From IMG/VR virus record IMGVR_UViG_3300025916_000011: 20,000 nt of DNA; one strand, written 5' to 3'. The stretch comes from an uncultured virus (IMG/VR IMGVR_UViG_3300025916_000011) (Duplodnaviria > Heunggongvirae > Uroviricota > Caudoviricetes). A model generated the notes under the pieces. It was given only the letters and a program-made list of their open reading frames with translations. It had not been told where the DNA came from and did no database searches. Shown one piece after another: positions 3,001 through 20,000 of the stretch. Made by a program: the position numbers and the translations under genes. How positions within the stretch are numbered: the first letter of the stretch is position 1; each line of letters begins with the position of its first letter.

Positions 3001-5034
3001 GGGAAAGGCGGAGTACTCGACCGGATCGCGCAGGGCATCAAGGGAATCACCCAAAAGGCCACACTCTCTAAATCCGCGCCACAAACCAAGCACCGTACTT
3101 ACATGGTGTTGGAGAATCAAAAGGGAGAGCGGCAAGTAGTCTCGGTCAAGGGTGGGCAGGTTACTTCATGGAAGAACGGCTCCCCAGAAAATCTCGGCGG
3201 GATCTCTCACACCCAAGAGGGAACTGTCTTCGAAGACAAAGACGGAAACGTCTGGAATCTGAAGCAAGCCACGACCAAGGAAATCGAGCAGCACACGGAG
3301 ACGAAGTATTATCACTCGTTCTGGGCTTCGACTCTAGTCTCGAACGTTCAGTTGCAGGGCGCTGTGAATGCGATGCGATTCCTGAACGAGTTTAAGACCA
3401 GCCCGGAATTCCAAGAGACTGCCTTCGATCTTAAAAAAGGGAACGCACCGAAGGGCTGGAAGACCACCAACCTCCAGCAGTTCAATGGGTACGCTTTTGA
3501 ACCCAGAACCGCCGAAGTTCTCGACGCCTATTACGATCGGATGCGCCAAGGAAATCTGGGGGCGCTGGAGCAGGTCGGGAACTTCATGCGGATCGCGATG
3601 CTCCTGAATCCGCTCTACCATCCGGCAAACGTCGTCGCGTCGTGGGCGATGGAGCGCGGCGCAACAGGCTTCTTACTTCCGAGCGAATATAAGATCGCAT
3701 GGAAGACAGGGAACAAAGCCGTCAAAGCCGTCATCGGGAAGAATCAGGACTTCATCGACGCACTCGACGCTGGCGGAGCGCTCCAGTCTCACCGCGAGGC
3801 CATGAAAGACATCAATAAGCTGTTCTTCGACCAACTCTCAGAGGGACTCGGCAAGCAGGAACCGTGGGCCATGAAAGTCGCGAAGGCTCTCGGAATTGAA
3901 CACGGAAACCTTCTAAATATCCTGCACAAGTTCTCCTCGACCGTAGCCTGGGGAGCAAATGACATTCTGATGCTTCAGTCCGCGTATGCCTATCAGGAGA
4001 AAAATCCGGGCGTCTCGCTGGCCGATGCGTTCAAGGAAGTTGGGCGAATCATCCCTGAGTATCGCGTGCCGACGCGCATCGCAGACAGTCAATTGCTTTC
4101 GAAGTTGATGACAAACAAGTGGGTGACAATTTTTGGTTCCTATCACTACTCACTTTTGCGCTCATTTGGGGAAGTGGCGAAGTCAGCGATCGGCGCGCAG
4201 GAACCTCCGCCGGGAAGCTCGAAGGCGAAGGAAGTCGCGAAGGGTTGGGACCGCATTGCTTTACTCGCTCTCGTCAGTATGGCGCTATATCCGATTTTGG
4301 ATGAGATGGCGAAAAAGGCCACCGGCGACAAGCATGCGAGAGTGAAGCGATTCGGCCCATTCGGAATAATCGACGCCGCAGCCGCTACAGCCAAGCACGA
4401 GCAATCCGTGAGCCAGACCATGCAGCGCGTTGTCACCCCGGCGCCACAGAGCAAAGCAGCCGCAGAACTCCTGACGAACCATGAGTTCTACGCAGGTCAC
4501 AACATTTACGATCCGCATGCTTCGTTCAAAACCCAAGCCGAGCAGATTGGGCGTTACATCCTCGGGGAGACTGGGCAAATCGGCCAGTACGAAAAAGCGC
4601 AAACCACACAGCAGAAGAGGAACTTCGCACTAGGCCAGGTCGGAATCCAGATGCACAAAACGGCCGCCGAAAAAACCGCCTCCGACATCGCAATGTCGAA
4701 AGTCGGGACACAGGCAGAATCCCCAGAGGATCAGGAGAGTCGTGTCCTTCGCCGGGAAATTCTCGACCAACTGAGAGCAGGGAATAAGAAGCCATTGGTG
4801 GACGCCGAGCACGCGCACGACATCACGCCGAAACAAGCACGAACGCTCGAAGAGAGAGCCAGGCGGACCCCTCTCCAAGATACCGTCCACGGCTTCACCT
4901 ACTCAGAAGCACGGAGAGTCTACGAAGTAGCGAGTCCGGAAGAGAAAAAGGAACTCGACGCGACGATGCGCCAGAAACGTATGAATCTGCTGAAGGCCGG
5001 ACGTGGGCGAGAAATCACCACCGCAACTCCCTGA
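1..5034 (+). CDS. Giant phage virion/DNA-ejection (large polyvalent-type) protein, 5'-partial, >1677 aa
   Basis: Frame 1 is open from base 1 to TGA at 5032-5034. Low-complexity E/K/A/P/G-rich N-terminal part, a PWEMT...HQAFVEEALAAGKQVPPEVLKDYPDL module, and a helical C-terminal part with a hydrophobic stretch (IALLALVSMALYPIL). Lies upstream of terminase. Confidence 0.7.
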   Translation, partial: QASKVAIGLINTAVGEYEKQVSAAVKPGEAGGKGAAATPPTAAPKKTSREKAAELAPKSGKYSTSDLAEPETALPATSTSEGKPEATEVEKTAVTGKEEGVQFHHETGGEGTSGVANAPERENVPAAGSGSAVESRTAHGQGNGKVAPQVEVQGAEGARSDVAGGGGTSPESLPLRRGDRAVLTRPTEGENGKIYPKGTEVIIKWPHPNGLVARALVNDGSPDWQNNGPKISKGVSSFARATTEDGTKISRGTSAFTRATVPVSVGAVHGNADVRGKQEGAPVPSTGAGEAEQRTGGVPERRPEVSGEPERAEESPAKSEWQTLFDQASKIQPDKVDSLRKMSGEQLREIVRASGNANSGQTSISGHVENDQASNERSRKVSDYIEKLFERRARSEAVKSRMDELEEDERDPRAIMQEFWAKTFPVLDERGRKTFLGNFKAQIGLGPGDTISTGPSGNIVAKSHQHITDEFFKNAKTFDGLEQNEQAVVALADIVNEMRRKNEPVEAAAPALSAPQGKLIEGESGASPVSNKEPWEMTRAEWKQSKGLTFTGGVHQAFVEEALAAGKQVPPEVLKDYPDLKKNEPSVSPVSKTETKSKVEKSTPVVAEDTEPAKEEPTKAEKTFAADLNKKVDGLRKQIKELEKETAAPAAYFQDSAKNASERLKRAARNQKLSDLKSELREIEQAHKIDLAEKITPEEKVPEEGKNFEGRYVRASLEPVKAAWLEKYKPREGEDVDEHWKWMVKNASNADKPADFAKGHLYIKVPDDGSFYIPNNPAAIDHALKAAGKFAASKVGEALPKAGPKPFRMTSPKEFDNEKYVAGLKKEISDLENELDSAGALQKPYIEEQLKAARENLVEAKKEEPESILAGERGEVAPGGPLSAAAEAAGAVGNYLREAAHYTKIARDLQRNLETLDTKKQALILSAKNTFEKLKAEGLTKEDDAKLYHFVENPEGESLDPKQEKFFDQAEPLLDKNSELYTELSQGGIPIENYVHRVVKGKGGVLDRIAQGIKGITQKATLSKSAPQTKHRTYMVLENQKGERQVVSVKGGQVTSWKNGSPENLGGISHTQEGTVFEDKDGNVWNLKQATTKEIEQHTETKYYHSFWASTLVSNVQLQGAVNAMRFLNEFKTSPEFQETAFDLKKGNAPKGWKTTNLQQFNGYAFEPRTAEVLDAYYDRMRQGNLGALEQVGNFMRIAMLLNPLYHPANVVASWAMERGATGFLLPSEYKIAWKTGNKAVKAVIGKNQDFIDALDAGGALQSHREAMKDINKLFFDQLSEGLGKQEPWAMKVAKALGIEHGNLLNILHKFSSTVAWGANDILMLQSAYAYQEKNPGVSLADAFKEVGRIIPEYRVPTRIADSQLLSKLMTNKWVTIFGSYHYSLLRSFGEVAKSAIGAQEPPPGSSKAKEVAKGWDRIALLALVSMALYPILDEMAKKATGDKHARVKRFGPFGIIDAAAATAKHEQSVSQTMQRVVTPAPQSKAAAELLTNHEFYAGHNIYDPHASFKTQAEQIGRYILGETGQIGQYEKAQTTQQKRNFALGQVGIQMHKTAAEKTASDIAMSKVGTQAESPEDQESRVLRREILDQLRAGNKKPLVDAEHAHDITPKQARTLEERARRTPLQDTVHGFTYSEARRVYEVASPEEKKELDATMRQKRMNLLKAGRGREITTATP
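314..604 (+). CDS. Possible overprinted ORF (+1 frame) inside the giant gene, helical 96-aa protein
   Basis: ATG at 314 lies 6 nt after TACAAT (302-307). Product MKRAEKELAELLMPL... is amphipathic-helical where the main frame is low-complexity. Confidence 0.3.
   Translation: MKRAEKELAELLMPLSAKMSLRQEAEAQLNLELLMVRETVKLLRRSKSKALREHGQMLLAAAELLQSHYRSAGATGPSLPARPKGKTARSTRKAPK
653..1009 (+). CDS. Probable overprinted small SH3-like phage protein (+1 frame) inside the giant gene
   Basis: YLYRW...RKGHLCRVLARGKRNNALVEFLSDGQRFLVSRNALKK resembles a small stand-alone phage protein family I recall (RKGQxCRVLARGxMNSxLVEFxDGxxxVxSRNALRK). Start uncertain (653, 680 or 734). Confidence 0.5.
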   Translation: MMEARIGKTMAQKSARESRPSPELPPKMEPRSAEERQHSPEQLYLYRWELYMGMPTCGGNRKGHLCRVLARGKRNNALVEFLSDGQRFLVSRNALKKAPPSLNGKLSSTKPLKSNLTK

Positions 5035-5137
5035 TACCGAGCGGATCAATACCAATGTGGGATAGGAGCCAGTTCGCGGCAAAGGCCATAATCAAAGCCC
5101 CGGCCAGCCAGAGCGGAATCTTTATCGCGTCTTTCAT
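5015..5137 (-). CDS. 40-aa single-transmembrane peptide (not in ORF track)
   Basis: MKDAIKIPLWLAGALIMAFAANWLLSHIGIDPLGIRELRW*; fills the gap between the giant gene and terS and has its own promoter-like sequence. Confidence 0.55.
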   Translation of the reverse strand: MKDAIKIPLWLAGALIMAFAANWLLSHIGIDPLGIRELRW

Positions 5138-5143
5138 CCTGAA

Positions 5144-5174
5144 ATCATGGACTGGGAAAGACCGTAGCTGTCAA
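5144..5174 (-). promoter_or_regulatory. Sigma70-type promoter for the 40-aa peptide (leaderless)
   Basis: TTGACA (5174-5169), 19-nt spacer, CATGAT (5149-5144), then ATG 6 nt downstream with no SD. Confidence 0.45.
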
Positions 5175-5234
5175 TGGTAGTAGGGTAGAATCTCATTTCC
5201 CCTGAACTTATGGGGGAAAGAGGGGAGCAGTGCC

Positions 5235-5861
5235 ATGGGGGAACCTTCCCCAAAGAAAAGTAAGCCGTCCGCGAAGTCTCTTGCCAACCTGCGACCCAAC
5301 CCGCAGAGCCTAAAAAGAGGCGGGAAAAAACCGCAAGAATTCATTACCCAGCCCGAGCTCGACTTCTGCAATTACCTGCTCGACGGCGCCACTGGCAAGG
5401 ATGCCGTGATTTGGGCAGGATTTCCCACCAAAACTCCCTCCCAACTGGCTTATAACCTCCGCCATAAGCCTATCGTAGCTCGGACACTCGAAGAACTGCA
5501 GGAGCAGCGCAAGAAGGAGTCTATTGAGCGCACTTCCCAACTTCGCGAGGAGCGTCGCATCTTCGCCCACCACCACTCCCTCCACTTAGCCCGCAAGATG
5601 AAGACCCACAAGTATCGTGGGGATGCGGACATCGTAAAGCACGCCGAGAATCTCCTACGATCGGTAGGAGATATCCAGCCGAATACCGTCAGCGCCAAAG
5701 CTGGAGCCGTAGCTGGTGCGCTTGCGGCCGCGCCGACGGCCACCTCGATCCCGCACTTATTTGTCCCTGCTTGGAAAAAAGCCATGACGCAGGTCGTAGA
5801 AGGAGAACCCTCTGTCCCTCAATTGGGAAGCAGCGAGCCCGGCGCAGGACGCATTCCTTAA
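5235..5861 (+). CDS. terS: Terminase small subunit
   Basis: SLANL motif then Terminase_2-like HTH (ITQPELDFCNYLLDG...AGF...AYNLRHKPIVARTLEEL); SD GAGGGGAG at 5220-5227; directly upstream of terL. Confidence 0.8.
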   Translation: MGEPSPKKSKPSAKSLANLRPNPQSLKRGGKKPQEFITQPELDFCNYLLDGATGKDAVIWAGFPTKTPSQLAYNLRHKPIVARTLEELQEQRKKESIERTSQLREERRIFAHHHSLHLARKMKTHKYRGDADIVKHAENLLRSVGDIQPNTVSAKAGAVAGALAAAPTATSIPHLFVPAWKKAMTQVVEGEPSVPQLGSSEPGAGRIP

Positions 5862-7329
5862 TTCTCTCGCGCAGTTTACCTGTGGAGGAGGAGCGGCCGG
5901 GACGTACAAAACCGAATCCCTGCTCGTTGACGCCGTTCACGAGTACGAGAATCCCCGGTTGAACGCTGTCCTGTTCCGCACGACTTTCCCAGAGCTCCAA
6001 GGCAAGATCATCCCGCGCTCCTACGATCTCTACAGTCAAATGTCCGGGGTGTACCACGAGAGTGAGCACTACTGGGAATGGCCTTGGGGATCTCGCGTCA
6101 AGTTCGCCTACCTCGGCCGCGACAAGGACGTTTACGCGCATCAGGGAGCCGAATACTCATGGATCGGCTTCGACGAAGGTACTCACCGCAGCGAATTCCA
6201 GATTCGCTATCTCCTATCCCGCCTTCGGTCGACTGACGGGCAAATCTTCTGTCGTGCAAGGGATGCGACCAACCCAGGCGGACCAAGCCACGATCTACAC
6301 ATGCACGTCTTTCTGGGAGGAGTCTGCCCGCATTGCCAGCCCGCCGTGAGAAAGCCCGGAGTCCTCTACCGCGATGCCACATGGTTGAGCGACAAGAAAC
6401 CGCTCGAGATGACCACGGAATACATTTTCAGTCTGTGGGATCCAAACGGACTTCTGCCCGACTACGGTAAGCAGTTGAGAATGCAGTCTGGTGGAATTTC
6501 CAAGGCGCTTCTCGAGGGGTGCTGGAAATCATTCGAAGGTCAGTATTTTGACATTTGGGAGCCGAATCGGGCGGGTATGCCAATGGTGGTGCCGCGGCAG
6601 AGCATCGGAGACGATTACTACTGGGCGCACTGGATTGGCTGCGACTACGGTTTCTCTGGCTCGAGCGCAGTCGCGTACCTTTTTGCCGTCGGTCAGGATC
6701 AGAAGATTTATTGCCTCGATGAGTACGTCTCGGAGAAAACCGCCAACGGAAAATCTGAAGATGTGAAGCAGTTCACGCGCAGCGTCTTTGAGCGGTTCTG
6801 CACAAAGCGCGATTGGCAGGAACAGCCACGAAAGATTCAGGCGATGTATCTCTCGCCAGACTGCTGGGCCGATCGCGGGGACGCGCACACTCTAGCCTCG
6901 CAGATGAACGAAGTCCTGCGGCCGCACAACCTTCACTGGATACAGGCTCGCAACGACCGCGCCGGTGGAGCGATGCTGATGTATACCATGCTCCAGACCG
7001 GGCAGTTTGTGATTGCGGAAAACTGCAAAGTGCTCCAGCAGTCGATTGAATCACGGATTCACGACCCCGACGAACCAGAGAAAGTTCTGAAGGTAATCGG
7101 CAGCATGTTGGATGACGCCTTCGACGCCTGCAGGTATGGCATCTACTCCTACAAGCGTCCGACCGAGAAGCCCCTTGCGATGCGCATCCATGAGCAGGTG
7201 GAGCATCTTTGGAAGGTTGATCCTACCACAGCTATGTATAAGGCGAATCAGATCATGGAAGCAGAGCGAAAGAAAGACGCGCCGGAAGAGTACGGGGGAG
7301 CCGCAGCGCGCGCCAGATTCAGACGTTAA
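5812..7329 (+). CDS. terL: Terminase large subunit (505 aa, CTG start)
   Basis: Frame is open from 5800 and includes PAQDAFL and Walker A GGGAAGTYKT upstream of the track's TTG at 5959. Walker B WIGFDE, TNPGG coupling motif, RNase H-like IGCDYG and DDAFDACRY. SD AAGGAG 5800-5805 then CTG 5812. Confidence 0.93.
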   Translation: MSLNWEAASPAQDAFLNSLAQFTCGGGAAGTYKTESLLVDAVHEYENPRLNAVLFRTTFPELQGKIIPRSYDLYSQMSGVYHESEHYWEWPWGSRVKFAYLGRDKDVYAHQGAEYSWIGFDEGTHRSEFQIRYLLSRLRSTDGQIFCRARDATNPGGPSHDLHMHVFLGGVCPHCQPAVRKPGVLYRDATWLSDKKPLEMTTEYIFSLWDPNGLLPDYGKQLRMQSGGISKALLEGCWKSFEGQYFDIWEPNRAGMPMVVPRQSIGDDYYWAHWIGCDYGFSGSSAVAYLFAVGQDQKIYCLDEYVSEKTANGKSEDVKQFTRSVFERFCTKRDWQEQPRKIQAMYLSPDCWADRGDAHTLASQMNEVLRPHNLHWIQARNDRAGGAMLMYTMLQTGQFVIAENCKVLQQSIESRIHDPDEPEKVLKVIGSMLDDAFDACRYGIYSYKRPTEKPLAMRIHEQVEHLWKVDPTTAMYKANQIMEAERKKDAPEEYGGAAARARFRR

Positions 7330-7754
7330 CCCTTCTTCTTCCTTGGCTTCGGTGGATCATTGGCTGTGGGAGCCAACTGCATCGTCCAGTTCTCATCCCA
7401 CTGGACTAAACTCGTTCTGTTCTTCATCAGGATTTTCAAGTTCTGCCGATGCCGCTTGAACTGCCCCATCTCTGCCCCGCCAATCCGTAAGTCCTCCACT
7501 ACTTTGTCAATCGGGATTTTCACTCCAGGTCTGGCCTTCAGATAGGACTCAAGAGCGTTTGTCATTCGCATGCCCTTGTACTGTCCGGGGGTAACAGGGT
7601 CGATCTGAAGGGAGTGGTGCGAACTTCCGTTGGGGCGGAAATTCGCGAGTGCGGAATCTATGGTTTGCATCTGAGTGGCGAGTTTTCGCTTCGCCTCGAG
7701 TAACAGGGTCACGGCCTCAGACACCTCATCCGTCTGCGGAGTTTGGCTTGCCAT
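7326..7754 (-). CDS. Hypothetical protein, N-terminal coiled coil plus putative C-terminal winged-helix DNA-binding domain
   Basis: 142 aa; SD TAAGGA; heptad-like N-terminus (LLLEAKRKLATQMQTIDSAL) and YKGMRMTNALESYL...IDKVVEDLRIGG; stop overlaps terL stop (TTAA). Confidence 0.7.
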   Translation of the reverse strand: MASQTPQTDEVSEAVTLLLEAKRKLATQMQTIDSALANFRPNGSSHHSLQIDPVTPGQYKGMRMTNALESYLKARPGVKIPIDKVVEDLRIGGAEMGQFKRHRQNLKILMKNRTSLVQWDENWTMQLAPTANDPPKPRKKKG

Positions 7755-7776
7755 TTGTTTGTTTTCCTTACGAAAA

Positions 7777-7836
7777 TTTATAACACTGGGAGCCCCTAAG
7801 CCTCTAGAGTTTCATCGCTATTTTGTTCTGTGTCAA
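7777..7836 (-). promoter_or_regulatory. Candidate sigma70 promoters for the 7326-7754 gene
   Basis: TTGACA (7836-7831)-17 nt-GAAACT (7813-7808), and extended -10 TGtTATAAA (7785-7777). Confidence 0.4.
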
Positions 7837-8224
7837 GTGGAATCACGTTTTCTGCATGATTCCGTACTGGCATTTCGATAACTTTCGCTGCAGTCTCTCG
7901 GATTAGCGCAGGTCCGTGTGCAAGAATATTCACCAAGTCTAGGAAGACTTGGCCGGGCAAACACAGTTCCCACTTCATCGTCTTGGCGTTGAATTCAATC
8001 AAACCGCGACGTTCCATCTGTCGCAATACAGTTTTTTCCTGATCCGTACACTCGATCGGGCTGAGTGCAAATTTGAAAGCAAAATCATCTCTCTGACAGG
8101 CTACGAGCAGGGAGTACTCGGTAATGGATAGCGGACACGATCTGAGCGCCGCCATCGCGCTACTAGCTAACTGAGGCATCAGCAAAACCGACGCTACGGG
8201 GCGCCGGACGGACGAAGTGGACAC
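7796..8224 (-). CDS. Hypothetical protein, possible winged-helix
   Basis: 142 aa, GTG start with upstream GGAG; LRQMERRGLIEF...KWELCLPGQVFL resembles a wHTH recognition helix/wing. Confidence 0.55.
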   Translation of the reverse strand: MSTSSVRRPVASVLLMPQLASSAMAALRSCPLSITEYSLLVACQRDDFAFKFALSPIECTDQEKTVLRQMERRGLIEFNAKTMKWELCLPGQVFLDLVNILAHGPALIRETAAKVIEMPVRNHAENVIPLDTEQNSDETLEA

Positions 8225-8360
8225 CGGGGGTTACTCCATTTCTTTAAACAGGGTCAACTGTACGGCATCGCACAAAGCATGTCTCTAGCACTTCAGTGGT
8301 GAATAAGTAGGGCTTCATGGGTAAGGCGTTTGGCGAACAACCCTTTGTCCCTCTCGGTTG

Positions 8361-8533
8361 TGGGTCCAACGTCAGTCCAAAACACACGGTTTTTTCGTGC
8401 TTTTTCGTGATACTGGACCCGTTAAGTTGATTGATTCCATTGTGTTTCCGTTTGGCGTTCGCAGGTAGGTTACTTTCGTGGTAGCCCTGCTTGCGCTTTT
8501 ATTTGCAACAAACTTGTACCCAAGTCAGTCCAG
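8361..8533. other. Candidate attP site
   Basis: Directly 3' of integrase. Paired arm-like repeats GGGTCCAA/GTCAGTCCAA (8362-8380) and GTACCCAA/GTCAGTCCAG (8516-8533), inverted arm copy at 8413-8420, tandem TTTTTCGTG at 10-bp spacing (8391-8409), IHF-like TAAGTTGATTGATT, imperfect inverted repeat AGGTTAC-TTTCGTG-GTAGCCC with 7-bp spacer (8467-8487). Confidence 0.6.
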
Positions 8534-8538
8534 AATTT

Positions 8539-9657
8539 TCACTGCACCAGCATGTTCCCAACTGCGGTTGCTGCTGAACGCGCGTCTGCGCTGACGCTGT
8601 GTGTGTAATGGACCATGGTTATTTTTGTTCCGGGCGCGTGACCCAAGCGCTCCTGCCGCACCTTCATGGGGACGCCCGCCTGGTCCATGAGTGTAGCAGA
8701 GCAGTGCCGAAATGCCTTCAATCCCTTCGAGGAAATTCCGAGGGCATCGCAGATCGGTGCCAAGCTATCCCGTCGGACGCTACAGGGATGAAGTGGCCCA
8801 CCGCGGGGTGAGACAAAGATCAGCCCAATGGGATTCGGGCGCCACGTCTGCAGGAATGCGTACAGGTGCTCGGCAAGTTCTTCAGAGATGGCGATCGAGC
8901 GGATAGCGTTCGTGGTTTTGGGCGTGGTGAAGATCGTCCGCCAGACACTTCTCTTGACATGGATGAGGCGCTTTTCGAGATCCAGATCGCTCACAAAGAA
9001 CGCGCACAACTCGCCTGGGCGAACTCCGGTCTCGGCCGCAAGCCAGTAGAGAGTTTTGTATTGACCCTCGGCGGCCGCAATGATGCTCTTGGCCTCGGCT
9101 GCGGTGTAGAAGAACGGCGACGTCGGACCTGACGAGGGGAACTTTAGCCGGTTGAACGGATCGTGGCTCACGTACTCGTCCGCCATGGCTGACTTCCAGA
9201 CCATCTGCAGAGTGAGTACTAGGTTGTGCCGAGTCTTGGGGGACTTGCGAGATTGCCGAATGAACTCTTGGATCGTTCGCCAGTGAATGTCTCGCAGCTG
9301 CATCTTGCCGAAGTAGGGAATCAGGTGGCACTTCAGTTGACTGTTCACGGAGTACTGCGTCGAGGGCTTGTGGCTCGGGAGTACGTTCTTTTTCCAGAAG
9401 TCCACGAACTGGGCGAACGTCTCTTCGCGCCTCGCACGGTACGACGGGTCATTGATCGGCGCCAGACGGGACTCAAGTTCTCGCAGCGCCAGCTTCATTG
9501 TTGGGAAAGACTTTTTCGAGCCGAGCACTTCGTTCTTGCGGACCCTGCGAACTTGACCGGCTGCGTCAATCACATCTTCCCGCCATCGTCCCACCCAGAC
9601 AGGCTGCCGCTTCCCGCGGAGCACTACGCTTCCACGCTGATACCTTCTTCTCGCCAT
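8539..9657 (-). CDS. int: Tyrosine recombinase / phage integrase (372 aa from MARRRYQ; alternative start 9741)
   Basis: Arm-binding N-terminus (MARRRYQRGSV...WVGRWRED), SAM-like domain, catalytic TGVRPGEL, PKT, KAFRH, LGH, HYTH; SD AAGGAG 9 nt before ATG 9657. Confidence 0.95.
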   Translation of the reverse strand: MARRRYQRGSVVLRGKRQPVWVGRWREDVIDAAGQVRRVRKNEVLGSKKSFPTMKLALRELESRLAPINDPSYRARREETFAQFVDFWKKNVLPSHKPSTQYSVNSQLKCHLIPYFGKMQLRDIHWRTIQEFIRQSRKSPKTRHNLVLTLQMVWKSAMADEYVSHDPFNRLKFPSSGPTSPFFYTAAEAKSIIAAAEGQYKTLYWLAAETGVRPGELCAFFVSDLDLEKRLIHVKRSVWRTIFTTPKTTNAIRSIAISEELAEHLYAFLQTWRPNPIGLIFVSPRGGPLHPCSVRRDSLAPICDALGISSKGLKAFRHCSATLMDQAGVPMKVRQERLGHAPGTKITMVHYTHSVSADARSAATAVGNMLVQ

Positions 9658-9800
9658 CTGTTCCATCTCCTTTGGAGACGGGACAGGATTGTTCGCCGGC
9701 AAGGAATCTTTCAGAGTCTCGAGTTGGGCGTCAACGGTCATGGCGTAGAAGTGGTTACCCTGGATATCTCCCTCTATTCCTGAACAGAATCACGTTCTAT

Positions 9801-9850
9801 ATTCTACGAAGCGCGTCTCCGTACATTGAGCAGTACGGGTCCCTACCCTC
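9801..9850 (-). repeat. ~48-bp junction element, copy A
   Basis: GAGGGTAGGGACCCG TACTGCTCAATGTACGGAGACGCG CTTCGTAGAAT; shares 15 nt with copy B and 11 nt with copy C. Confidence 0.75.
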
Positions 9851-10127
9851 CGACTTTGCGGACGTGGCCGGGGTGATGCTCCCAAGGGTCCCAGCCGAAT
9901 GCGTCCGCGAAGTGATTCTCCATTTTCTCGATCAGTTCCGGCAGTGATGACTTCAACTGCCTGACATGAAACTCGGCAGGCATCGGCAGCAGAAGCGCAT
10001 GAGCTAAATTGTCGAGCGAGTCTATGTCCTGACCAAGCGCATCCTCTTGGCTTTCGGTAATCTGCTCTGGTTCTGCAACCTGAGTTGCTCCGTGAGTTCC
10101 TCGCGCCGGAATTTTGCGATCCGCCAT
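9843..10127 (-). CDS. Hypothetical protein, 5' end uncertain or chimeric
   Basis: C-terminal ~70 aa look protein-like (DIDSLDNLAHALLLPMPAEFHV...WDPW); first third overlaps the upstream gene by about 105 nt; TAG stop lies inside element A. Confidence 0.5.
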   Translation of the reverse strand: MADRKIPARGTHGATQVAEPEQITESQEDALGQDIDSLDNLAHALLLPMPAEFHVRQLKSSLPELIEKMENHFADAFGWDPWEHHPGHVRKVGG

Positions 10128-10297
10128 ACTGTGAAGTCGTGCATGTCTTTTCTGTGGCCTAACTCTTCTTCGGCCTCACGCTTGGTAAGCCGCGCACTCA
10201 TCCATAGCGTGTACCAGATGACGCAGTGCTTGTAGCTGCCTTCAGGCACATAGAGGAACTTTTTCGCACGCCGCACAATCTTTTTCGATCCGCTCAT
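10022..10297 (-). CDS. Hypothetical protein (91 aa)
   Basis: ATG 10297 overlaps upstream stop (ATGA) with GGAG SD in the 28-bp junction repeat. Confidence 0.6.
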   Translation of the reverse strand: MSGSKKIVRRAKKFLYVPEGSYKHCVIWYTLWMSARLTKREAEEELGHRKDMHDFTVWRIAKFRREELTEQLRLQNQSRLPKAKRMRLVRT

Positions 10298-10521
10298 TTC
10301 TGCGCTCCGTCCTCCACCCCACTTGTTTGCACATATCCAGTCGCCAATTGTGCAGCGTGTGTATCGCAAAGGTTAACCGCGCCCAATTCTTTGCCCGTCA
10401 CGTAGCTAAACGCCAAGAACACTCCCACGGCTTTCTCTGGGCAGCGGCTTACTCCGCAAATATCGTCCAGCGGAAGCCCGTCTTGGATGAAGTACATTGC
10501 GCGTTTATTCGGATCAGCCAT
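10294..10521 (-). CDS. Small putative Zn-binding protein (75 aa)
   Basis: SD AAGGAG; MADPNKRAM...; C-x4-C and CxxH motifs. Confidence 0.7.
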   Translation of the reverse strand: MADPNKRAMYFIQDGLPLDDICGVSRCPEKAVGVFLAFSYVTGKELGAVNLCDTHAAQLATGYVQTSGVEDGAQK

Positions 10522-10546
10522 CACTCTTTCTCCTTTTTCCTTTTCA

Positions 10547-10593
10547 TCTACGTGTCCCTCTCGTTGGTGAGACTCTACCGGGTCCCTACCCTC
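10547..10593 (-). repeat. ~48-bp junction element, copy B
   Basis: GAGGGTAGGGACC-CGGTAGAGT-CTCACCAA-CGAGAGGGACAC-GTAGA, beginning at the upstream TGA. Confidence 0.8.
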
Positions 10594-10759
10594 AATCGTC
10601 ACAGTACAAGTCGAGTGTGTTTTTCTCTGGGTCAATGACCGATCCTGTGACGCTTTCCCATGCCATTGAGTCAGGGTCGAAGATGCGGACCACGGTGTCT
10701 GGTGACGAGCCGTGGTCCAGCAGGTTTTGCAAGTGCGCAATTAGGCTTGCAATGCTCAT
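10592..10759 (-). CDS. Small acidic hypothetical protein (55 aa; not in ORF track)
   Basis: MSIASLIAHLQNLLDHGSSPDTVVRIFDPDSMAWESVTGSVIDPEKNTLDLYCDD*; ATGA overlap with the Tad1-like gene stop. Confidence 0.75.
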   Translation of the reverse strand: MSIASLIAHLQNLLDHGSSPDTVVRIFDPDSMAWESVTGSVIDPEKNTLDLYCDD

Positions 10760-11049
10760 GCTGCGTTCGTTCCCTCGACCTTACGCGCCTCGCGGTCCAT
10801 CTTGCGCTTTAGCGACCAGAGAATAGCCTCGTCAAGTTTAGTGATGATGATGGAATTCTCGCGGCACGGAAACGCCTTGTTGAATCCCTCGATTTTTTCC
10901 TTGGCCCATGCGATTACATCGTCAATCTGGCAGCCGTTCTCCCCGAACTCCTTGATCGGCCCGGACTGAATCTGAAAGCTGACGGTTGAGATTTGCCCAT
11001 GCACTTGCGGCCAACCCGACTCTGCAATAAATTTGTTTTCCTTCAACAC
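10756..11049 (-). CDS. tad1: Tad1/Acb2-family anti-defence cyclic-nucleotide sponge protein
   Basis: FQIQSGPIKEFGENGCQIDDVI...FPCRENSIIITKLDEAILWSLKRKMDREARKVEGT matches the Tad1 signature FQxGPxKExGxNG...FxCRENxxAxTKLEEAxxWxxxRxxDRxxRxVEGT; SD GGAGG. Confidence 0.85.
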   Translation of the reverse strand: MLKENKFIAESGWPQVHGQISTVSFQIQSGPIKEFGENGCQIDDVIAWAKEKIEGFNKAFPCRENSIIITKLDEAILWSLKRKMDREARKVEGTNAA

Positions 11050-11069
11050 TTACCACCTTCCTCCCTGAT

Positions 11070-11119
11070 GAGGGGCAGGGACCCCGAATGGACTCACCAA
11101 CATCTCTACTTCGTAGAAT
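11070..11119 (+). repeat. ~48-bp junction element, copy C (inverted)
   Basis: GAGGGGCAGGGACC-CCGAATGGA-CTCACCAA-CATCTCTACTTC-GTAGAAT on the + strand. Confidence 0.8.
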
Positions 11120-11156
11120 CAAAGGGCACAAAGAAGAAACAAAAGTAAAGTTCGCG

Positions 11157-11768
11157 TCATTCCTTCTCCTTGAGTTGCTCCGTGAGTTCCTGGATGCGCT
11201 TCTCGGCCTTGTAAAACGATTCCTCTGCGGATTCTTTTAGGGCTTGGAGCAGATCGCGCTCGTTTTGCAGTTCTGCATTCTTCCTCTCTAGCTCGGCAAG
11301 TTGAGAACGCGCATAGGCTTCGGCAAACGATAGTGCGGCATCAAAGTATCTGACTCCGATTGCTCCAAGAGTCGCGTGCCATTCCTTGCGATTGTTGCCG
11401 TAGAATTGATCCGCGCTCTGCGTCACGCTAGAGACTCCCGCAGGCCAAGGTCCATAAACACAGTTACTCATCTGTAAGCATTTCCCGCGCGGCCCCTTGT
11501 GAACGATGCAGTAAATTTCCTCCGGTGCGGCTGGCGTGGTCGAGGACTCCCCTGCACTCCCCGCGTGCAAAGGATCAATGCACTGTCCTGTCGCCAAAGG
11601 TCCGTATTTCGCACACGTTGGGCAGGTCGGTGCTGGCTTCGCCTCTACTCCAGAGTGCCAAGGATGCGAATTGGGTTCGGTATCGTTACCTCCGAGGCAG
11701 GCTTGAAGCAGCACATTCCTTTTGTCACTGCCACATTTCGGGCATCTGCTCTGTTCGCTGCTCATCAC
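11157..11768 (-). CDS. Mosaic Cys/His-rich hypothetical protein with C-terminal coiled coil
   Basis: 203 aa; CPKC...HPWH, CPTC...CIDPLH and CIVH...C modules; coupled by stop/start overlap. Confidence 0.75.
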   Translation of the reverse strand: MMSSEQSRCPKCGSDKRNVLLQACLGGNDTEPNSHPWHSGVEAKPAPTCPTCAKYGPLATGQCIDPLHAGSAGESSTTPAAPEEIYCIVHKGPRGKCLQMSNCVYGPWPAGVSSVTQSADQFYGNNRKEWHATLGAIGVRYFDAALSFAEAYARSQLAELERKNAELQNERDLLQALKESAEESFYKAEKRIQELTEQLKEKE

Positions 11769-11995
11769 TTACCTCGCGCCCTGATTGCATAAAGATTTTT
11801 CCACTTTTTCACTTGATTGCTGGCGCGGCTCAATTGTTTCTCGGCAGCAACCAATTTCCGTTCAGCCCTTATCAGGATGTATTCTGTGGCTTGCAGTTCG
11901 GTTGGGAAATGTATGGCTGTCGGACGAACGCGCCCTGCCGAAACACGCTTAATCGAATTCAGATAATCATCTACAACATATCTCGTCTCGCTCAT
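11765..11995 (-). CDS. Hypothetical protein (76 aa)
   Basis: GGAG SD plus ATG in the 28-bp junction repeat; C-terminal coiled coil. Confidence 0.7.
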   Translation of the reverse strand: MSETRYVVDDYLNSIKRVSAGRVRPTAIHFPTELQATEYILIRAERKLVAAEKQLSRASNQVKKWKNLYAIRARGK

Positions 11996-12022
11996 TTCTG
12001 CGCTCCGTCCTCCACCTTATTG

Positions 12023-12070
12023 TCTACACGTACCCTCTACTTGGTGAGAGGCTTCGAGGTACCTGCCTAC
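12023..12070 (-). repeat. ~48-bp junction element, copy D
   Basis: GTAGGCAGGTACC-TCGAAGCCT-CTCACCAA-GTAGAGGGTACGT-GTAGA, beginning at the TAG of the C5-MTase relic. Confidence 0.75.
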
Positions 12071-12207
12071 TTGCTTGCTTGCTCATGGTCAGATTCACCG
12101 ACAGCCTGCACTATTCGCCGTCCGATCCACTCGGCTATTTGGGGCACGATTGCATTGCCGTAGTGCTTCACCATGTTTCTGACCATCGCGACGGAAATCC
12201 CATCACA
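12067..12207 (-). pseudogene. C-terminal relic of a C5-cytosine DNA methyltransferase (motif IX-X region)
   Basis: CDGISVAMVRNMVKHYGNAIVPQIAEWIGRRIVQAVGESDHEQASK*; GNAIVPQIAEWIG is the motif X signature; in frame right after the amino-MTase TAG. Confidence 0.75.
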
Positions 12208-12924
12208 CTAGAATTGCAATACTTCCTGGCTCAGACGCTTGGCCGCGATCTCGCAGTACTTCTCCTCGATCTCTATGCCGATTGCCGCGTAGCCGAGAGA
12301 TTTAGCCGCGAGTAGCGTCGTGCCACTTCCCATGAACGGGTCAACGATTGGCGCGACACACTCGTCCTTAAATTGCCGAATTAACTGCTTGCAAAGATGC
12401 AGCGGCTTTTCTGCAGGGTGCTGGCCATGGACTACCGGGAAATCCCATACCGCACGAGCCCCGCCACCGTTCCATGCCAGCGCGATATCGCCTGCTGGGT
12501 AGTGTTTGTGCATGATGGCGATGGCTTCCCATCCGGTCGCTGGCCGGTCACCAGTAAATTGCGGAGCGCCATTAGGTTTCACCCACACTCCGAAGCGAAT
12601 GAACCGCATGAACTCTGGAGGAGAACTTTCTAACTCAACCATATATCGCCAATCCATGAAGCTAATCATCCAACGACGTAGCCGAATCGCGGCCACGCCT
12701 AGCGCCGCTTTTATTTCCTCAATAGTCATCGGCGCGAAGTCGATCAGAACGTTGTCCATAGAATTTTCGGCGGATTTGCGAGTGCGCGCTCCAGTATGAG
12801 TAGCCGGAGAATATGGCGGGTCAGTCAGAATTAACCCGAACCAACTCGCTGGAATCTGCGGCAACACTTCTCGGCAGTCTCCGTGGTAGATGGTTATGCC
12901 TGCGTGCTCGTAGTAAGGCTTCAA
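12208..12924 (-). CDS. Orphan N6-adenine/N4-cytosine DNA methyltransferase (beta class)
   Basis: IYHGDCREVL, DPPY before DPFMGSGTT, HPAEKP, GIEIEEKYCEIAAKRL; TTG start at 12924 after AAGGAG, overlapping the upstream TGA. Confidence 0.92.
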   Translation of the reverse strand: MKPYYEHAGITIYHGDCREVLPQIPASWFGLILTDPPYSPATHTGARTRKSAENSMDNVLIDFAPMTIEEIKAALGVAAIRLRRWMISFMDWRYMVELESSPPEFMRFIRFGVWVKPNGAPQFTGDRPATGWEAIAIMHKHYPAGDIALAWNGGGARAVWDFPVVHGQHPAEKPLHLCKQLIRQFKDECVAPIVDPFMGSGTTLLAAKSLGYAAIGIEIEEKYCEIAAKRLSQEVLQF

Positions 12925-13109
12925 CTTCGCTCCTTGGTGGCTGGCTGCGTCTGCCCCTCTTGCTGGGATTTCCACCTTTGCAGAATTGGCCTAATCATGG
13001 CAGCGAGTGCAGAAATCGCACTTTGGTTCGAATCGAACAACTCTTCCGCGATGAACTGTGCCAAGTCTTTTTCGTCACCGTAGACTTCGATTTCGTCTCT
13101 ATATGGCAC
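12921..13109 (-). CDS. Hypothetical protein (62 aa)
   Basis: GTG start after AAGGA; coupled to the MTase start. Confidence 0.6.
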   Translation of the reverse strand: MPYRDEIEVYGDEKDLAQFIAEELFDSNQSAISALAAMIRPILQRWKSQQEGQTQPATKERS

Positions 13110-13113
13110 GTAT

Positions 13114-13743
13114 TTATCCTTTCGCGGAGGCCTGTTCTTGCGTCAATTCGCAGGGGCAATTACCCCCTGCTCCTTCGCAACCAATTTTCGGCCCGTGATG
13201 CGCAGAGGTCAGACAGTGACATTCGGGGCATTCCTTTATCGGTGGCTGCGTCTGCCCCGCCCCCTCCAGAACACGCGCTGCCTCTCTATCCTGCACGTGC
13301 AACGCTGCTATAGTCGCCTCCAGATTCTCGATGATCGTAGTCGTGGCGCAAGTCGCCAGATATGCCGATAGCCCGATGAAATGGTCGCGAGCCTTACGCA
13401 GCGCCTTCTCCAGTTCCTCTACGCGCGTGGGCGGTGTTGTTGGGGCCACAGTAGCCTCTCCCGCCGCCAATTTTTCTGCCCAGATGTCGCCCCACAAATC
13501 CATTAGTCCGCGAATCTTGTGATCTTTCCCGGATACTTCGCGGCACAAGTCGCAGGTATAGAAGTCGCCACACTTGCATTCGTTCTCGCGCAACTCCAAC
13601 TCTGCTACCTGTTCTCGCAAGGTCATGTACTCGGCCAATCCGCGCGTGGCATTGTCGATTTCCTTGCAGCAGCACTGCGCGAAAGGCTCATTGCACTCGT
13701 TACAGTTGGGGAAAATTCGCTTAATCTCAGGCTTCGCTTCCAT
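13114..13743 (-). CDS. Mosaic Cys-rich hypothetical protein (209 aa)
   Basis: SD GGAGGAG; CNEC...CCC, CKC...CDLC and CPEC...C clusters plus coiled-coil RVEELEKALRKAR. Confidence 0.75.
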   Translation of the reverse strand: MEAKPEIKRIFPNCNECNEPFAQCCCKEIDNATRGLAEYMTLREQVAELELRENECKCGDFYTCDLCREVSGKDHKIRGLMDLWGDIWAEKLAAGEATVAPTTPPTRVEELEKALRKARDHFIGLSAYLATCATTTIIENLEATIAALHVQDREAARVLEGAGQTQPPIKECPECHCLTSAHHGPKIGCEGAGGNCPCELTQEQASAKG

Positions 13744-13746
13744 GAT

Positions 13747-13953
13747 TTACTCCTCCACTAAGACCTTTGGACAGCGTTCACATTCGGCCTTCATACGTTG
13801 TGGCTTGCGAACAGCCGTGACCCATACTTCGTGCCCACAAGAAAGCGTCAGACACCAGCGACGTGCATTCATTGGGGACTGATCAACTCGCTGAACCGTC
13901 ATCACCTGCAATTTGTGCGTTGGGGATACAGTAGAAACCTGCTCTTTCCTCAT
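13747..13953 (-). CDS. Small Zn-ribbon protein (68 aa)
   Basis: MRKEQVST...LTLSCGH...CERC; ATGA overlap at 13950-13953. Confidence 0.7.
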   Translation of the reverse strand: MRKEQVSTVSPTHKLQVMTVQRVDQSPMNARRWCLTLSCGHEVWVTAVRKPQRMKAECERCPKVLVEE

Positions 13954-14684
13954 TTCGCCACACTTTCTTGACTCTTGAAGGCTTCCTCTACCATTGCGTT
14001 GAATTGATCCCGAGCCGCATCCCAAGCCGCAGCCCAAGCCGCATCCCGAGCCGCATCCCGAGCCGCAGCCCGAGCCGCATCCCAAGCCGCATCCCGAGCC
14101 GCATCCCGAGCCGCAGCCCGAGCCGCATCCCAAGCCGCAGCCCAAGCCGCATCCCGAGCCGCATCCCAAGCCGCATCCCAAGCCGCAGCCCAAGCCGCAT
14201 CCCAAGCCGCAGCCCAAGCCGCATCCCAAGCCGCATCCCAAGCCGCATCCCGAGCCGCATCCCGAGCCGCAGCCCGAGCCGCATCCCTCTTACTTTCGTC
14301 GCCTGTTTCTAAATATTCTTTAGTGATCGCGGGACAGTTCCACAGATGAATGACGCTGAGGGCCTGCTTTCGCGCGAATAGGCGCAAGAGTGCAGTCGCG
14401 TCAATGGTGGCAACGATCTTCCGCCGACGCGCGACAACTTTGTCCGATTGCGTCTCTACGATCCCTTCAAGCTCCACCTGATGCAATATTTCGCCCGGAG
14501 CATATCGCAGCGCATCGAAAGGCGTCTCGCTGGCATGGAGGCCGGATTCGCACATGATTACTTCTCCGTCATGCGTCAGCCATTCGCCAATCTTGGGCAA
14601 CTCTCGGCAATCGCGCAGCTTTGAGCCGGTGAAGTGGTAATAAATCTTGCTCGGAGTAGAAACCTGCTCTTTCGGTTGGGTCAT
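13950..14684 (-). CDS. DUF7666-like phage protein with (R/W)(D/A)AA tandem repeats
   Basis: [19 protein letters not shown]...[11 protein letters not shown] domain followed by 23 tetrapeptide repeats. Confidence 0.85.
14007..14287. repeat. 12-bp coding tandem repeat, about 23 units
   Basis: Unit A(T/G)CCC(G/A)AGCCGC on the + strand with only two variable positions. Confidence 0.97.
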
Positions 14685-17575: not shown

Positions 17576-18346
17576 TTACTCCATTGCCCATTTGAGGGCT
17601 TCGGGGAAATCTTTCTTGGGCATCTCGTCCAGCGTCTCCAGCCCGATGGTGCCGAGATAGTCGGTGACCTGCTGCTGCGTCTTGTTGGCCTTTTTCGCGG
17701 CAGACAGGAAGGCATTCTTCTGGAAGGGAAGGATTGAGCCAACTGGAATAGCTGGCTTATCCTCGCTCTTTGGCGGTCGCGGGGGGTACTGAGGCGTGAC
17801 CGGTGCCGCTGCTGCTGGCTGCGCGGCACGGGCTGGCCTGTGGACTTCCTGCTCTGTGTTGGAGTCCTCGGGATCGTCCGCGCGATCGGGAACCAGACCC
17901 AAGCCTCGGAGGAAGTACTTGATAGCTCCGGTCTTTGCTTTGTAGATGGCCTTGTCGAAAGTATCCCGGCCCACACCATAGGCCGACTGGGAGATTTCCG
18001 CCGTGTCGTCCTTTAGGGTGAACTTGATCTTTAGGCGGCACTCCTGCATCGTTCCGCCAGCATTGGTCTCGTAGTCGCAAAACTCGGCGGACTCTTCGTG
18101 CTGCAGAAGGATCACGCCCCGTTCAAACAGTTCATGGCGGAACGCTGCTGCCACGTCTGCGGCCATCACATAGGAGTAATTCTGCTTCTGGTTGCGGCCT
18201 TTCTTCTCGATGCCGCCGACTGCGTTGCAGGCTTCGGCAATCTTCTGTACTAGGGTGGTGGCGGTAGACCTAGCCGCCGTGCCTTCAGAGTTGGTAGGTG
18301 CTTTTCTGGGTGTCATAACAGTGGGTTCAACGGTTGCAGTTGCCAT
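17576..18346 (-). CDS. erf: ERF-family single-strand annealing recombinase
   Basis: IEKKGRNQKQNYSYV...GVGRDTFDKAIYKAKTGAIKYFL...DDPE; SD AGGAGG. Confidence 0.9.
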   Translation of the reverse strand: MATATVEPTVMTPRKAPTNSEGTAARSTATTLVQKIAEACNAVGGIEKKGRNQKQNYSYVMAADVAAAFRHELFERGVILLQHEESAEFCDYETNAGGTMQECRLKIKFTLKDDTAEISQSAYGVGRDTFDKAIYKAKTGAIKYFLRGLGLVPDRADDPEDSNTEQEVHRPARAAQPAAAAPVTPQYPPRPPKSEDKPAIPVGSILPFQKNAFLSAAKKANKTQQQVTDYLGTIGLETLDEMPKKDFPEALKWAME

Positions 18347-19457: not shown

Positions 19458-20000
19458 TTTTTGGCCTCAATCTTTTTTCCATTAACATCTACTTCCCACG
19501 TAGGTGCGCATACTCTGGGAGCTTTGATCTTTGTGGGGTAGTTAGGGTCTTTGTGGACCACGATTTCCGACACTTTTACGGGGCAGGCTACGAATTTCTT
19601 CCCCTCGGCGTCGAACTGGTAGCACATGCATGGTATCGGGCAGAAGTGGAGTCCTCCGCCACACTCAGCGGTACCGCCATCCCAGTCATCAGCCTTTGGC
19701 ATTGTGCCCGGTTCGTAGGACGTTCCGTGCTGGCTTTTCCAGTCGGCGCGGACGATCTTGTAGAGAATCGCGACGCCCTTCTCGGGAACGACGCCGTAGT
19801 TAGCGAGCCAATGCTTGGCCGTTCGCGGGCCTTTGTACTTAATCTGTACTCCGCCGGTCACTTTGGCTTTACCTGTGACCGTAACCGCTACTTGCTTCGA
19901 AGCCGTGACCTGCGAAGAGTCGCAAGCCGTGACCTGCGAAGAGCCGCAAGCCGTGACCTGCGAAGAGCCGCAAGCCGTGACCTGCGAAGAGTCGCAAGCC
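19454..20000 (-). CDS. DUF7666-like protein with N-terminal octapeptide repeats, 5'-partial
   Basis: Frame is open to the window end; repeats AC(D/G)SSQVT then LYKIV...YEPG...DWD...ECGGGLHF...KIKAP. Confidence 0.85.
   Translation of the reverse strand, partial: ACDSSQVTACGSSQVTACGSSQVTACDSSQVTASKQVAVTVTGKAKVTGGVQIKYKGPRTAKHWLANYGVVPEKGVAILYKIVRADWKSQHGTSYEPGTMPKADDWDGGTAECGGGLHFCPIPCMCYQFDAEGKKFVACPVKVSEIVVHKDPNYPTKIKAPRVCAPTWEVDVNGKKIEAKK
19901..20000. repeat. 24-bp coding tandem repeat (at least 4 units, truncated by window)
   Basis: AGCCGTGACCTGCGAAGAG(T/C)CGCA contiguous units with no spacers. Confidence 0.95.

Follow-up and report, generated by a model that had tools for sequence, protein, structure and literature searches.

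The stretch of DNA analysed here (the window) comprises 20,000 nucleotides from an uncultured virus of the Caudoviricetes, and its central part holds a lambda-type phage integrase, an attP-like region, a homologue of Thoeris anti-defence 1 (Tad1), several small open reading frames and four copies, named A to D, of a two-box repeat (Table 1). The product of tad1 matches PDB 8KBB (E 6.5e-15) and phrog_2428, which bears out the identity that had been predicted for it, and orf55, whose last codons and TGA lie within the inner part of B, has no Pfam, PHROG or NCBIfam match. The 39-aa stub that ends in D presumably resembles the C-terminus of a cytosine methyltransferase. Putative core-like inverted hexamers, read from the sequence, surround positions 8474-8480 of the attP-like region, whose arm-like repeats resemble the copies in GGGTCC, a likeness that had been predicted and is present in the sequence; no tRNA gene was found in the window.

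Table 1. Features of the window discussed in the text, with positions counted from its first letter.
Feature	Position	Strand	Details
attP-like region	8362..8532	.	arm-like GTCAGTCCA at 8371 and 8524
Lambda-type phage integrase (int)	8539..9741	-	PF00589 and PF14659
A, putative right end of a second cassette, left end missing	9795..9874	-	boxes 9837-9848 and 9803-9807
Putative cargo of A, 94-aa ORF	9843..10127	-	77% identical over 79 aa to the bracketed L174 cargo
B, right end (R type)	10539..10617	-	boxes 10580-10591 and 10547-10551
Cargo 2, 55-aa ORF (orf55)	10592..10759	-	ORF reading
Cargo 1, Tad1 homologue, 97 aa (tad1)	10756..11049	-	homology
C, left end (L type)	11047..11125	+	conserved boxes 11073-11084 and 11113-11117
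13-codon hydrophobic stub	11119..11160	-	start overlaps upstream gene stop; ends at outer edge of C
D, putative solo right end, variant lineage	12015..12095	-	box AGGCAGGTACCT, 12057-12068
39-aa stub ending in D	12067..12186	-	ORF reading
Erf single-strand annealing protein	17576..18346	-	PF04404

The four repeats are real. Copies B (10547-10591, minus strand), C (11073-11117, plus strand) and D (12023-12068, minus strand) match the consensus GGYAGGKACC-N9-CTCACCAA-N12/13-GTAGA with 0 mismatches, and a scan of the window gave four two-box and three three-box matches versus 0 and 0 in 1000 Markov-1 control sequences, the kind of shuffled background in which, according to the original prediction, a spurious element would score similarly. 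The tripartite consensus is thus exact in B, C and D, and A (9803-9848, minus strand), whose central box had been called degenerate, has both outer boxes and a middle box with 6 mismatches. Likewise, of the three copies said to start exactly at a stop codon, B begins directly after a TGA (10592-10594) and the TAG of D overlaps its first bases, whereas that of A sits within the box. The window contains no fifth copy, nor does the 59.5-kb record (G001) of this phage. The matches described between halves of the copies are present: agreement between the left halves of A and B (15/15) and between the right halves of A and C (11/11) is higher than in most pairs of the family (identity there in 2.2% and 0.8% of pairs, respectively), and the 13/15 agreement between the left halves of C and D is ordinary (36% of family pairs). 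The element also reaches about 26 bp farther inward than had been drawn, and in C this extension takes in the ribosome-binding site of tad1.

As predicted, inverted C and B bracket tad1. The inner part of C, which follows the L-type inner consensus, supplies the tad1 ribosome-binding site on the minus strand, and C, tad1, orf55 and B together form an outward-facing bracket that, as part of the explanation developed below, we read on balance as an intact loaded unit. The 13-codon stub is, judging from its sequence, probably an interrupted gene start. By the same explanation, A and D would, a little more probably than otherwise, be right ends whose left partners have been lost; the gene-to-end junction of A recurs in a bracket of another phage (L174) that has both ends, and the copy nearest to D (76% over 93 bp), in phage G013, is paired with a left end. 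The tad1 gene is bracketed again, with other flanks, in G004/L010, and across its occurrences it has two ends, remnants of them or no ends at all.

The family comprises 86 distinct copies in 43 phage records, from uncultured soil phages that probably infect Acidobacteria. Searches of 185,579 prokaryote genomes, with patterns catching 10 and 23 of 71 known copies, gave 0 matches, cultured phages and plasmids gave chance matches only, and a description of the family was not found in the literature searched. Conserved in the element are GGGYAGGGACCC and GTAGA, at a spacing of about 28 bp (26-30 bp in 73/73 copies, allowing for a 5-bp box duplication), with an A-rich stretch after GTAGA; the ‘central box’ is variable, and CTCACCAA, which had been taken to be fixed, occurs in only 7/71 copies. 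Inside the conserved box, GGGNAGGG, the FtsK-orienting motif, is found in 60/71 copies, and nothing further was found in support of that role. The repeats may also bear some likeness to twister, HDV-like, Cas12a-repeat, oriT and IS1380-family end sequences. Copies lie on the strand opposite to their operon in 37 of 70 cases and about half of all are solo, including some at conserved positions, either upstream of terminase genes (about a dozen records) or in a membrane-protein gene, which suggests a function in place. A single copy viewed as a 58-bp mini-element with 6-bp ends was rejected (match 1.97 versus 2.08 for shuffled partners).

Where two copies lie less than 700 bp apart they are inverted and face outward (20/20 pairs), enclosing one or two unrelated genes; a ribosome-binding site is contributed by the left end and stop codons by the right. 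The first cargo start falls 25-27 nt past the left box in 13/19 brackets, a figure from a script that favoured starts near +26. In the 15 brackets with flanks read the cargo is always in line with the operon and inverted cargo was not found. Cargo proteins recognised so far are a DNA methyltransferase, a queuine tRNA-ribosyltransferase-like protein and, in two instances, Tad1; among 18 scanned cargo ORFs, 14 had no PHROG match at E 0.001 and none was a transposase. Unrelated cargo sits in unrelated flanks across phages. In L174 and L183 the ends are 96% and 89% identical, the cargo is unrelated and so are the other surroundings, which amounts to one cargo swap between near-identical ends. Spacer alleles are recurrent but unlinked, a family-wide patchwork by which the copies are mosaics, and these alleles, along with the cargo swap, point indirectly to homologous exchange between copies. 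An exact filled/empty pair of DNA sites was not found among these phages; the locus shared by G031 and G032 was considered as an empty site and rejected, as it holds a different gene there.

The original prediction attributed the patchwork to the phage integrase, which would recombine the sites at the central CTCACCAA box and invert or shuffle genes as in a shufflon or an integron. In its favour, tad1 does sit between inverted C and B, int has A immediately upstream, GGGTCC occurs both in the repeats and in the arm-like repeats, and there is no linkage between the first spacer segment and the last (rho -0.003). However, all other pairs of spacer segments are unlinked as well (rho at most 0.10), linkage being absent at every junction tested, and spacer similarity is no greater within pairs than between unpaired ends (p 0.24). 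Each segment of B and A finds its closest counterpart in other phages (the first spacer segment of B equals that of a G008 copy, 8/8, and the last that of a G003 copy, 14/14), and where breaks in gene content had been expected at the sites, homology breakpoints are spread over gene starts and stops. The regions adjoining three other integrases have neither GGGTCC nor GGACCC, close relatives of the window integrase were not found in viral contigs, and with the integron-integrase model TIGR02249 it scores 28.5 bits versus a cut-off of 265. The adjacent integrase is not the mover, since complete bracketed phages (G013, G030-G033) have no tyrosine recombinase, the whole family shows the patchwork and inversions were not seen (all 15 cargoes lying in line). 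The integrase model is thus largely refuted and we consider it very unlikely; the cassette-shuffling idea survives in the cassette-associated ends, the bracketed tad1 and the mosaic copies, but not in an integrase crossover within a fixed box.

The search for another mobilising enzyme found no phage protein common to the carriers. Tyrosine recombinases occur in 18/29 and 1/5 carrier records, serine recombinases in 5/29 and HUH enzymes (PF01797) in 0/27, and the complete carriers G013 and G019 have no dedicated recombinase. A catalytic-domain-only tyrosine recombinase before terS in many carriers was rejected as the enzyme, as a serine resolvase occupies the same slot elsewhere and many carriers have neither. 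No autonomous copy was found in viral scans, GTDB, phage or plasmid records, each of limited sensitivity, and a search with read-through peptides, itself a weak test, detected no longer protein (a possible transposase) reading through an end.

Some proteins read through both ends, with exactly 17 codons between them in 6/7, and the right-hand portion of these proteins agrees with translated right ends of the family. These six imply empty doublets of about 150 bp, whose existence we infer from proteins only; as DNA, the empty doublet had 0 matches in viral contigs. Direct repeats abut the left end in 3/19 pairs (7, 14 and 17 bp) and, at lengths of at least 7 bp, are absent in 16/19, the pair in the window included; among mismatched pairs, an abutting repeat reached 12 bp in 0/340. 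The 14-17-bp repeat may not be a target duplication, because it is a gene start present three times in L174 and because L174 and L183 share an origin. At the 7-bp repeat of L005 the reading frame is the same on both sides of the unit, and a homologue search for the intact end of the interrupted gene returned only itself and one partial match. The pairs displayed no duplication at a fixed offset (at most 2/12 pairs for 3-mers) and the ends no invariant terminal base.

An end is also fused at one fixed point in 76 members of a small membrane-protein family, 82 members of which are without it, and the tail beyond that point is a translation of the same DNA in either of two reading frames (23 and 32 proteins), which indicates that it is conserved as DNA. 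Could the motif be simply a by-product of coding, the tail of this gene (Val-Tyr ... Arg-Val-Pro-Ala) copied by chance? The left end is in frame within the membrane-protein gene, at 28-bp spacing, in about 11 phages, the peptide is present in the 76 homologues, and the DNA scans used select for exact codons. Nevertheless, the copies opposite to their operon, the spacings of 27, 29 and 33 that break the frame, the tail in two frames and the 82 homologues without it all argue against such an origin, as does L145, which was found via tad1 rather than the motif and keeps 11/12 box bases, and we regard it as extremely improbable.

The best explanation for this family, with its outward geometry, unrelated cargo and flanks, one swap between near-identical ends and mosaic ends, would be that the repeats are the ends of a MITE/MIC-like non-autonomous gene-carrying unit whose cargo is swapped by homologous recombination, a reading that we favour with modest confidence. 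The unit would consist of two inverted ends of about 75 bp, residing in soil phages that probably infect Acidobacteria. When empty it would be a doublet, with its ends placed head to head within about 150 bp (TCTAC, 28 bp, 12-bp box, 48 bp, 12-bp box, 28-33 bp, GTAGA), and when loaded it would carry one or two genes at its centre, which the ribosome-binding site of the left end and the stop codons of the right end would allow to be expressed by read-through in an early operon. Cargo would be exchanged by homologous crossovers that take place in both ends, through annealing of the Erf/RecT type, and such crossovers would explain both the patchwork and the many solo ends; the Erf protein of the window is a candidate for such swaps. 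Whole units would be inserted in trans by a protein binding the two boxes.

It is possible, though doubtful, that the repeats are regulatory linkers and not mobile, that is, protein-bound modules fused to translation signals, with genes swapped by homologous recombination only; one example would be an activator site near -47 with a TAGA -10 element, firing outward (compare the PeSLs of T4-like phages). The fixed two-box spacing, the A-rich stretch, the solo copies before the terminase operon and, here, before int would suit linkers, as would mosaic spacers, which fit homologous exchange, breakpoints at gene starts and stops, and the failure to find a dedicated enzyme. However, little was gained from the promoter with TAGAAT as -10 that had been offered as an alternative: TANNNT is found in only 13/85 copies, there is no -35 signal (match 2.06 of 6, below the 2.34 of shuffled spacers) and no sigma-70 site in 8300-13400. 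Six right ends have a gene start, either supported by homology or predicted, 2-5 nt beyond GTAGA, which leaves too little room for a promoter that ends at this point. An activator-dependent form may still apply; an activator common to the carriers was not found. Linkers also leave the strict outward pairing, the fixed-length empty doublets and the interrupted gene stubs unexplained. Pairing of the ends in mRNA or single-stranded DNA, with a long stem round the cargo serving as a processing signal or a folded recombination site, is highly improbable. The left and right boxes are complementary on the transcript by construction and the outer flanks, compared in inverted orientation, resemble each other a little more than expected by chance (p 0.03), but 67 aligned copies have no covariation, folding z-scores range from -1.09 to +0.87, neither spacers nor inner bases match within pairs, and many copies are solo. 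An RNA element or ribozyme was rejected for the same lack of covariation and of a stable fold, and for the lack of an Rfam match, which also counts against the stem.

How phages acquire single accessory genes, in frame and correctly placed, is an old open question. Because the ends of this family are defined, an empty form has been inferred, cargo has been swapped once and 20 loaded examples come from phages whose virion genes are unrelated, the question becomes testable in reads, and the brackets mark candidate counter-defence genes. A bolder reading, which we deem unlikely, is a phage-restricted gene-capture system, in which the doublet of about 150 bp would be mobile, its palindromic centre would be the capture site and the enzyme would be a dedicated one. 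If true, the capture enzyme would set whole reading frames between the built-in ribosome-binding site and stop codons, and would then insert the loaded unit into the early operons of phages that are unrelated but belong to the same host group. Such a system would be an analogue of integrons, lacking IntI and attC, in which counter-defence genes such as tad1 are traded.

Like integrons and shufflons, the window combines an array of accessory genes, in which each stop codon has a site close by, with a neighbouring tyrosine recombinase, but this integrase is lambda-type, there are neither folded attC sites nor inversions, and the enzyme is missing from many carriers. The pdif site is a 28-bp XerC/XerD site with a 6-bp spacer, a layout that, judged by architecture only, boxes separated by 28 bp would seem not to match; as the left end is not the same as the right, short modules here always have one polarity. 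The likeness is in the module itself, since pdif modules of Acinetobacter plasmids are described as accessory genes between recombination-type sites with no enzyme aboard (PMC6449649). REPINs form inverted doublets with fixed spacing and many solo remnants (PMC3337134), all of which recur here; unlike them, the repeats have no hairpin, RAYT-type gene or high chromosomal copy number, and they carry genes. PeSL cassettes of T4-type phages combine a sigma-70 promoter with a stem-loop, and crossovers between PeSLs excise circles (PMC2839356). Both are conserved intergenic modules beside variable phage genes, with chimeric copies and homologous swaps of the flanked genes, but the repeats are without a sigma-70 promoter or a stem-loop (no terminator-like site was detected in 9800-12100) and are paired in inverted orientation. 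Closest to our preferred reading are MICs and MITEs, which carry passenger genes between short inverted ends and have no enzyme of their own (PMC4337579, PMC11602168). Passenger DNA between inverted ends, cargo without its own transposase and an inferred short empty form are common to both; the repeats differ in multi-box ends with variable spacers and no invariant terminus, in that target duplications are not the rule and a parent IS was not found, in being seen only in phages, and in a left end that donates a ribosome-binding site. The latter study lists 99 MITEs in phages of Acidobacteriae UBA7540 (PMC11602168), and our repeat family may be among them.

The four repeats beside the integrase (A to D) are genuine and belong to a family of inverted cassette ends that seems not to have been described before; that they are the ends of a mobile unit is somewhat more likely than not. 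The element stood out from Markov-1 control sequences, with 0 matches in 1000; the proposed consensus was matched exactly by B, C and D, although A retains the outer boxes only. No further copies were found in G001, a 59.5-kb record identical to the window at 100% over 1-14083 and judged to be the same phage. A strict pattern matched 1 viral and 5 metagenome contigs, and looser patterns matched 5, 54, 21 and 16 viral stretches in successive scans; 12 loci of the 54-stretch scan were excluded as probable chance matches before the profile was built, and three of nine new loci examined from the 16-stretch scan gave no profile match. The final tally is 86 distinct copies in 43 records, window included, leaving out two off-by-one duplicates, two weak matches, one internal duplicate and G001. 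The family core is GGGYAGGGACCC, 26-30 bp, GTAGA and then an A-rich stretch, the invariance of both boxes being partly built in by their use as search terms; where the spacing is longer, 5 bp at the end of the box are duplicated. A heptamer like CTC(A/G)CCA lies within the spacer in 24 of 85 copies and ~20 bp inward of the box in 40 (control 3/85). The carriers are several phage groups with no protein common to the whole set at BLAST level. Cultured phages and plasmids gave chance matches only, and a search of 185,579 prokaryote genomes with two patterns, which recover 10 and 23 respectively of 71 known copies, gave no match.

The copies take two placements, as left ends (reversed, before a gene, whose ribosome-binding site they include) and as right ends (after a gene, whose stop lies just inward or is a TGA/TAG inside the end). 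Neighbouring copies no more than 700 bp apart form 20 pairs, every one of them facing outward, and the six pairs 701-1500 bp apart comprise three direct, two inward and one outward. The bracketed cargo measures 167-665 bp, is unrelated from bracket to bracket and is oriented in line with the operon in 15/15 brackets whose flanks were read. Roughly half of the copies stand alone, with no partner nearby. Because the box spacing is fixed and such solo copies sit at conserved positions, the main rival is still that the copies are regulatory linkers that act as promoters; we consider this rather unlikely, as tests for -10 and -35 boxes were negative and it leaves both the outward pairing and the empty doublets described below unexplained. 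A conserved ~100-bp stretch and GTAAC boxes, found in the leader before the terminase operon, are possibly a late-control element or small RNA.

Under the mobile-unit reading, C-tad1-orf55-B is a loaded bracket, carrying a Thoeris anti-defence 1 homologue and a 55-aa ORF. In another phage tad1 is the only gene bracketed by ends of this kind, within different flanks, and the homology sets in at the left end's outer box. Among 12 loci with tad1 relatives, six are close (77-90% identity). Both ends are present in one of these, a decayed left end in another and only a similar ribosome-binding site in a third; the remaining three have none of these features. Since the gene that terminates in A shares 77% identity, and the same junction, with the cargo of the complete L174 bracket, A is read as a right end that has lost its left partner; the 20-bp repeat in the table may mark the recombination that removed it. 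D, a right end of variant type, has its nearest match in a paired copy from phage record G013, and what is probably a hydrophobic gene start of 13 codons is interrupted at C's outer edge.

Features of the window and of compared phage records and loci (G and L numbers)
Record	Coordinates	Strand	Feature
Window	653-1009		ORF inside annotated 1653-aa frame
Window	8539-9741	minus	lambda-type integrase, adjoining attP-like region
Window	9803-9848	minus	A
Window	10082-10101, 11172-11191		20-bp repeat, identical in both copies, close to the 3' ends of two ORFs
Window	10291-10318, 11989-12016		gene-start linker: identical 28-bp repeat (44 bp at 84%) spanning ribosome-binding sites and start codons in two different genes
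Window	10547-10591	minus	B
Window	11073-11117	plus	C
Window	12023-12068	minus	D
Window	12931-12957, 13232-13258		27-bp repeat near ends of two genes
Window	13983-14311, 19876-19995		12-bp and 24-bp tandem arrays within ORFs (the first in a DUF7666 gene)
G007	12900-13000		conserved ~100-bp stretch and GTAAC boxes; also in L019, G022, G025, downstream of solo right end
G013	63131-63362, 64686-64917		231-bp internal duplicate at record's end, containing a left end; may be an assembly effect
L019	1593-2129		catalytic-domain-only tyrosine recombinase just before terS; also in 13 other records
L136	329-544		P0003-family membrane protein
L144, L145	609-838, 2501-2787		tad1 copies frameshifted at same point, one with 52-bp deletion, other with 19-bp insertion and deletion
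L145, L064	2800-2890, 180-280		second inverted-repeat doublet, about 90 bp

An empty form is implied by proteins. The left end lies fused within the gene for a small membrane protein in about 11 phages, and profile searches for this protein gave 162 proteins: 76 whose tail is encoded by the end according to pattern matching (P0121 being a false match), 82 that have different tails (some few of these being decayed ends), 2 frameshifted, and 2 long repetitive proteins that were excluded. In seven the reading frame continues into a right end, with exactly 17 codons in between in six of these, and the read-through peptide agrees with the translation of known right ends. This implies empty doublets whose boxes lie 48 bp apart, a length equal to the two inner parts combined. 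No such DNA turned up in the scan of viral contigs, and the read-through proteins come from other assemblies. Between L174 and L183 the ends are alike (96% and 89%) and cargo and neighbours differ, which we read as a cargo swap inside fixed ends. The P0003 family has at least 159 members, which are small, cross the membrane once, carry basic tails and match nothing in Pfam or PHROG; the stretch after the membrane helix is a hot spot for insertions. The ~90-bp doublet follows tad1 in L145; it has a left arm similar to one of the main element's spacer alleles, and peptides translated from the doublet reappear in many tails of the small membrane protein.

Certain alleles recur among the spacer segments: near-identical pairs number 95, 134 and 64, compared with 23, 11 and 19 after column shuffling. 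The 2x2 combination of halves first seen among A to D is a local sample of these family-wide alleles, the first segment of B being exactly that of a G008 copy and the last that of a G003 copy. A single crossover point in the central box found no support, the segments being unlinked (rho at most 0.10); the pattern instead fits frequent homologous exchange among copies from different phages.

As signs of insertion, a direct repeat immediately adjoins the left end in 3 of 19 pairs; the window's own bracket has none. In L005 a 7-bp repeat stands in the same frame on both sides of the unit, and the flank on the right looks like a gene's tail, coupled to the start that follows. Repeats of 14 and 17 bp are ambiguous because they have a common origin and involve a gene start that recurs elsewhere in those phages. 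Among 340 mismatched flank pairs, 33 had a repeat of at least 7 bp somewhere and none one of at least 12 bp. Homology-block ends lie near copies in 11/231 cases (2.6 expected), scattered over starts and stops, and gene borders would be enriched in any case.

As to an enzyme, 18 of 29 records have a tyrosine recombinase, which is full-length in 4 and a short form in the others, and 5 have a serine recombinase. Complete G013 and G019 have neither, the four complete bracket-bearing records G030-G033 have no tyrosine recombinase, and no HUH transposase was found in 27 records. The window integrase falls far below the integron-integrase cut-off. In five records a serine resolvase replaces the tyrosine recombinase before terS.

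The window, carrying terminase genes, a lambda-type integrase and an attP-like region, is part of a temperate phage with a minus-strand early operon (Erf, Gp157, VRR-NUC, methyltransferase and many small ORFs). Its host group is likely Acidobacteriota, because the integrase's nearest clusters are mostly from that phylum and one element-linked protein is named from an Acidobacteriaceae assembly. The 1653-aa gene may start later than 73, since the inner ORF has homologues in phage record G011 and proteins P0026, P0093 and P0099.

No description of these ends was found in the literature searched; the 99 MITEs listed by PMC11602168 for phages of Acidobacteriae UBA7540 may include this family. The phage ends share some traits with REPIN (PMC3337134) and pdif (PMC6449649) and differ from them in others. 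Not all defining properties of MIC/MITE (PMC4337579, PMC11602168) or PeSL (PMC2839356) could be recognised in them, yet the layout is like that of MIC/MITE and the gene swapping is probably like that of PeSL.
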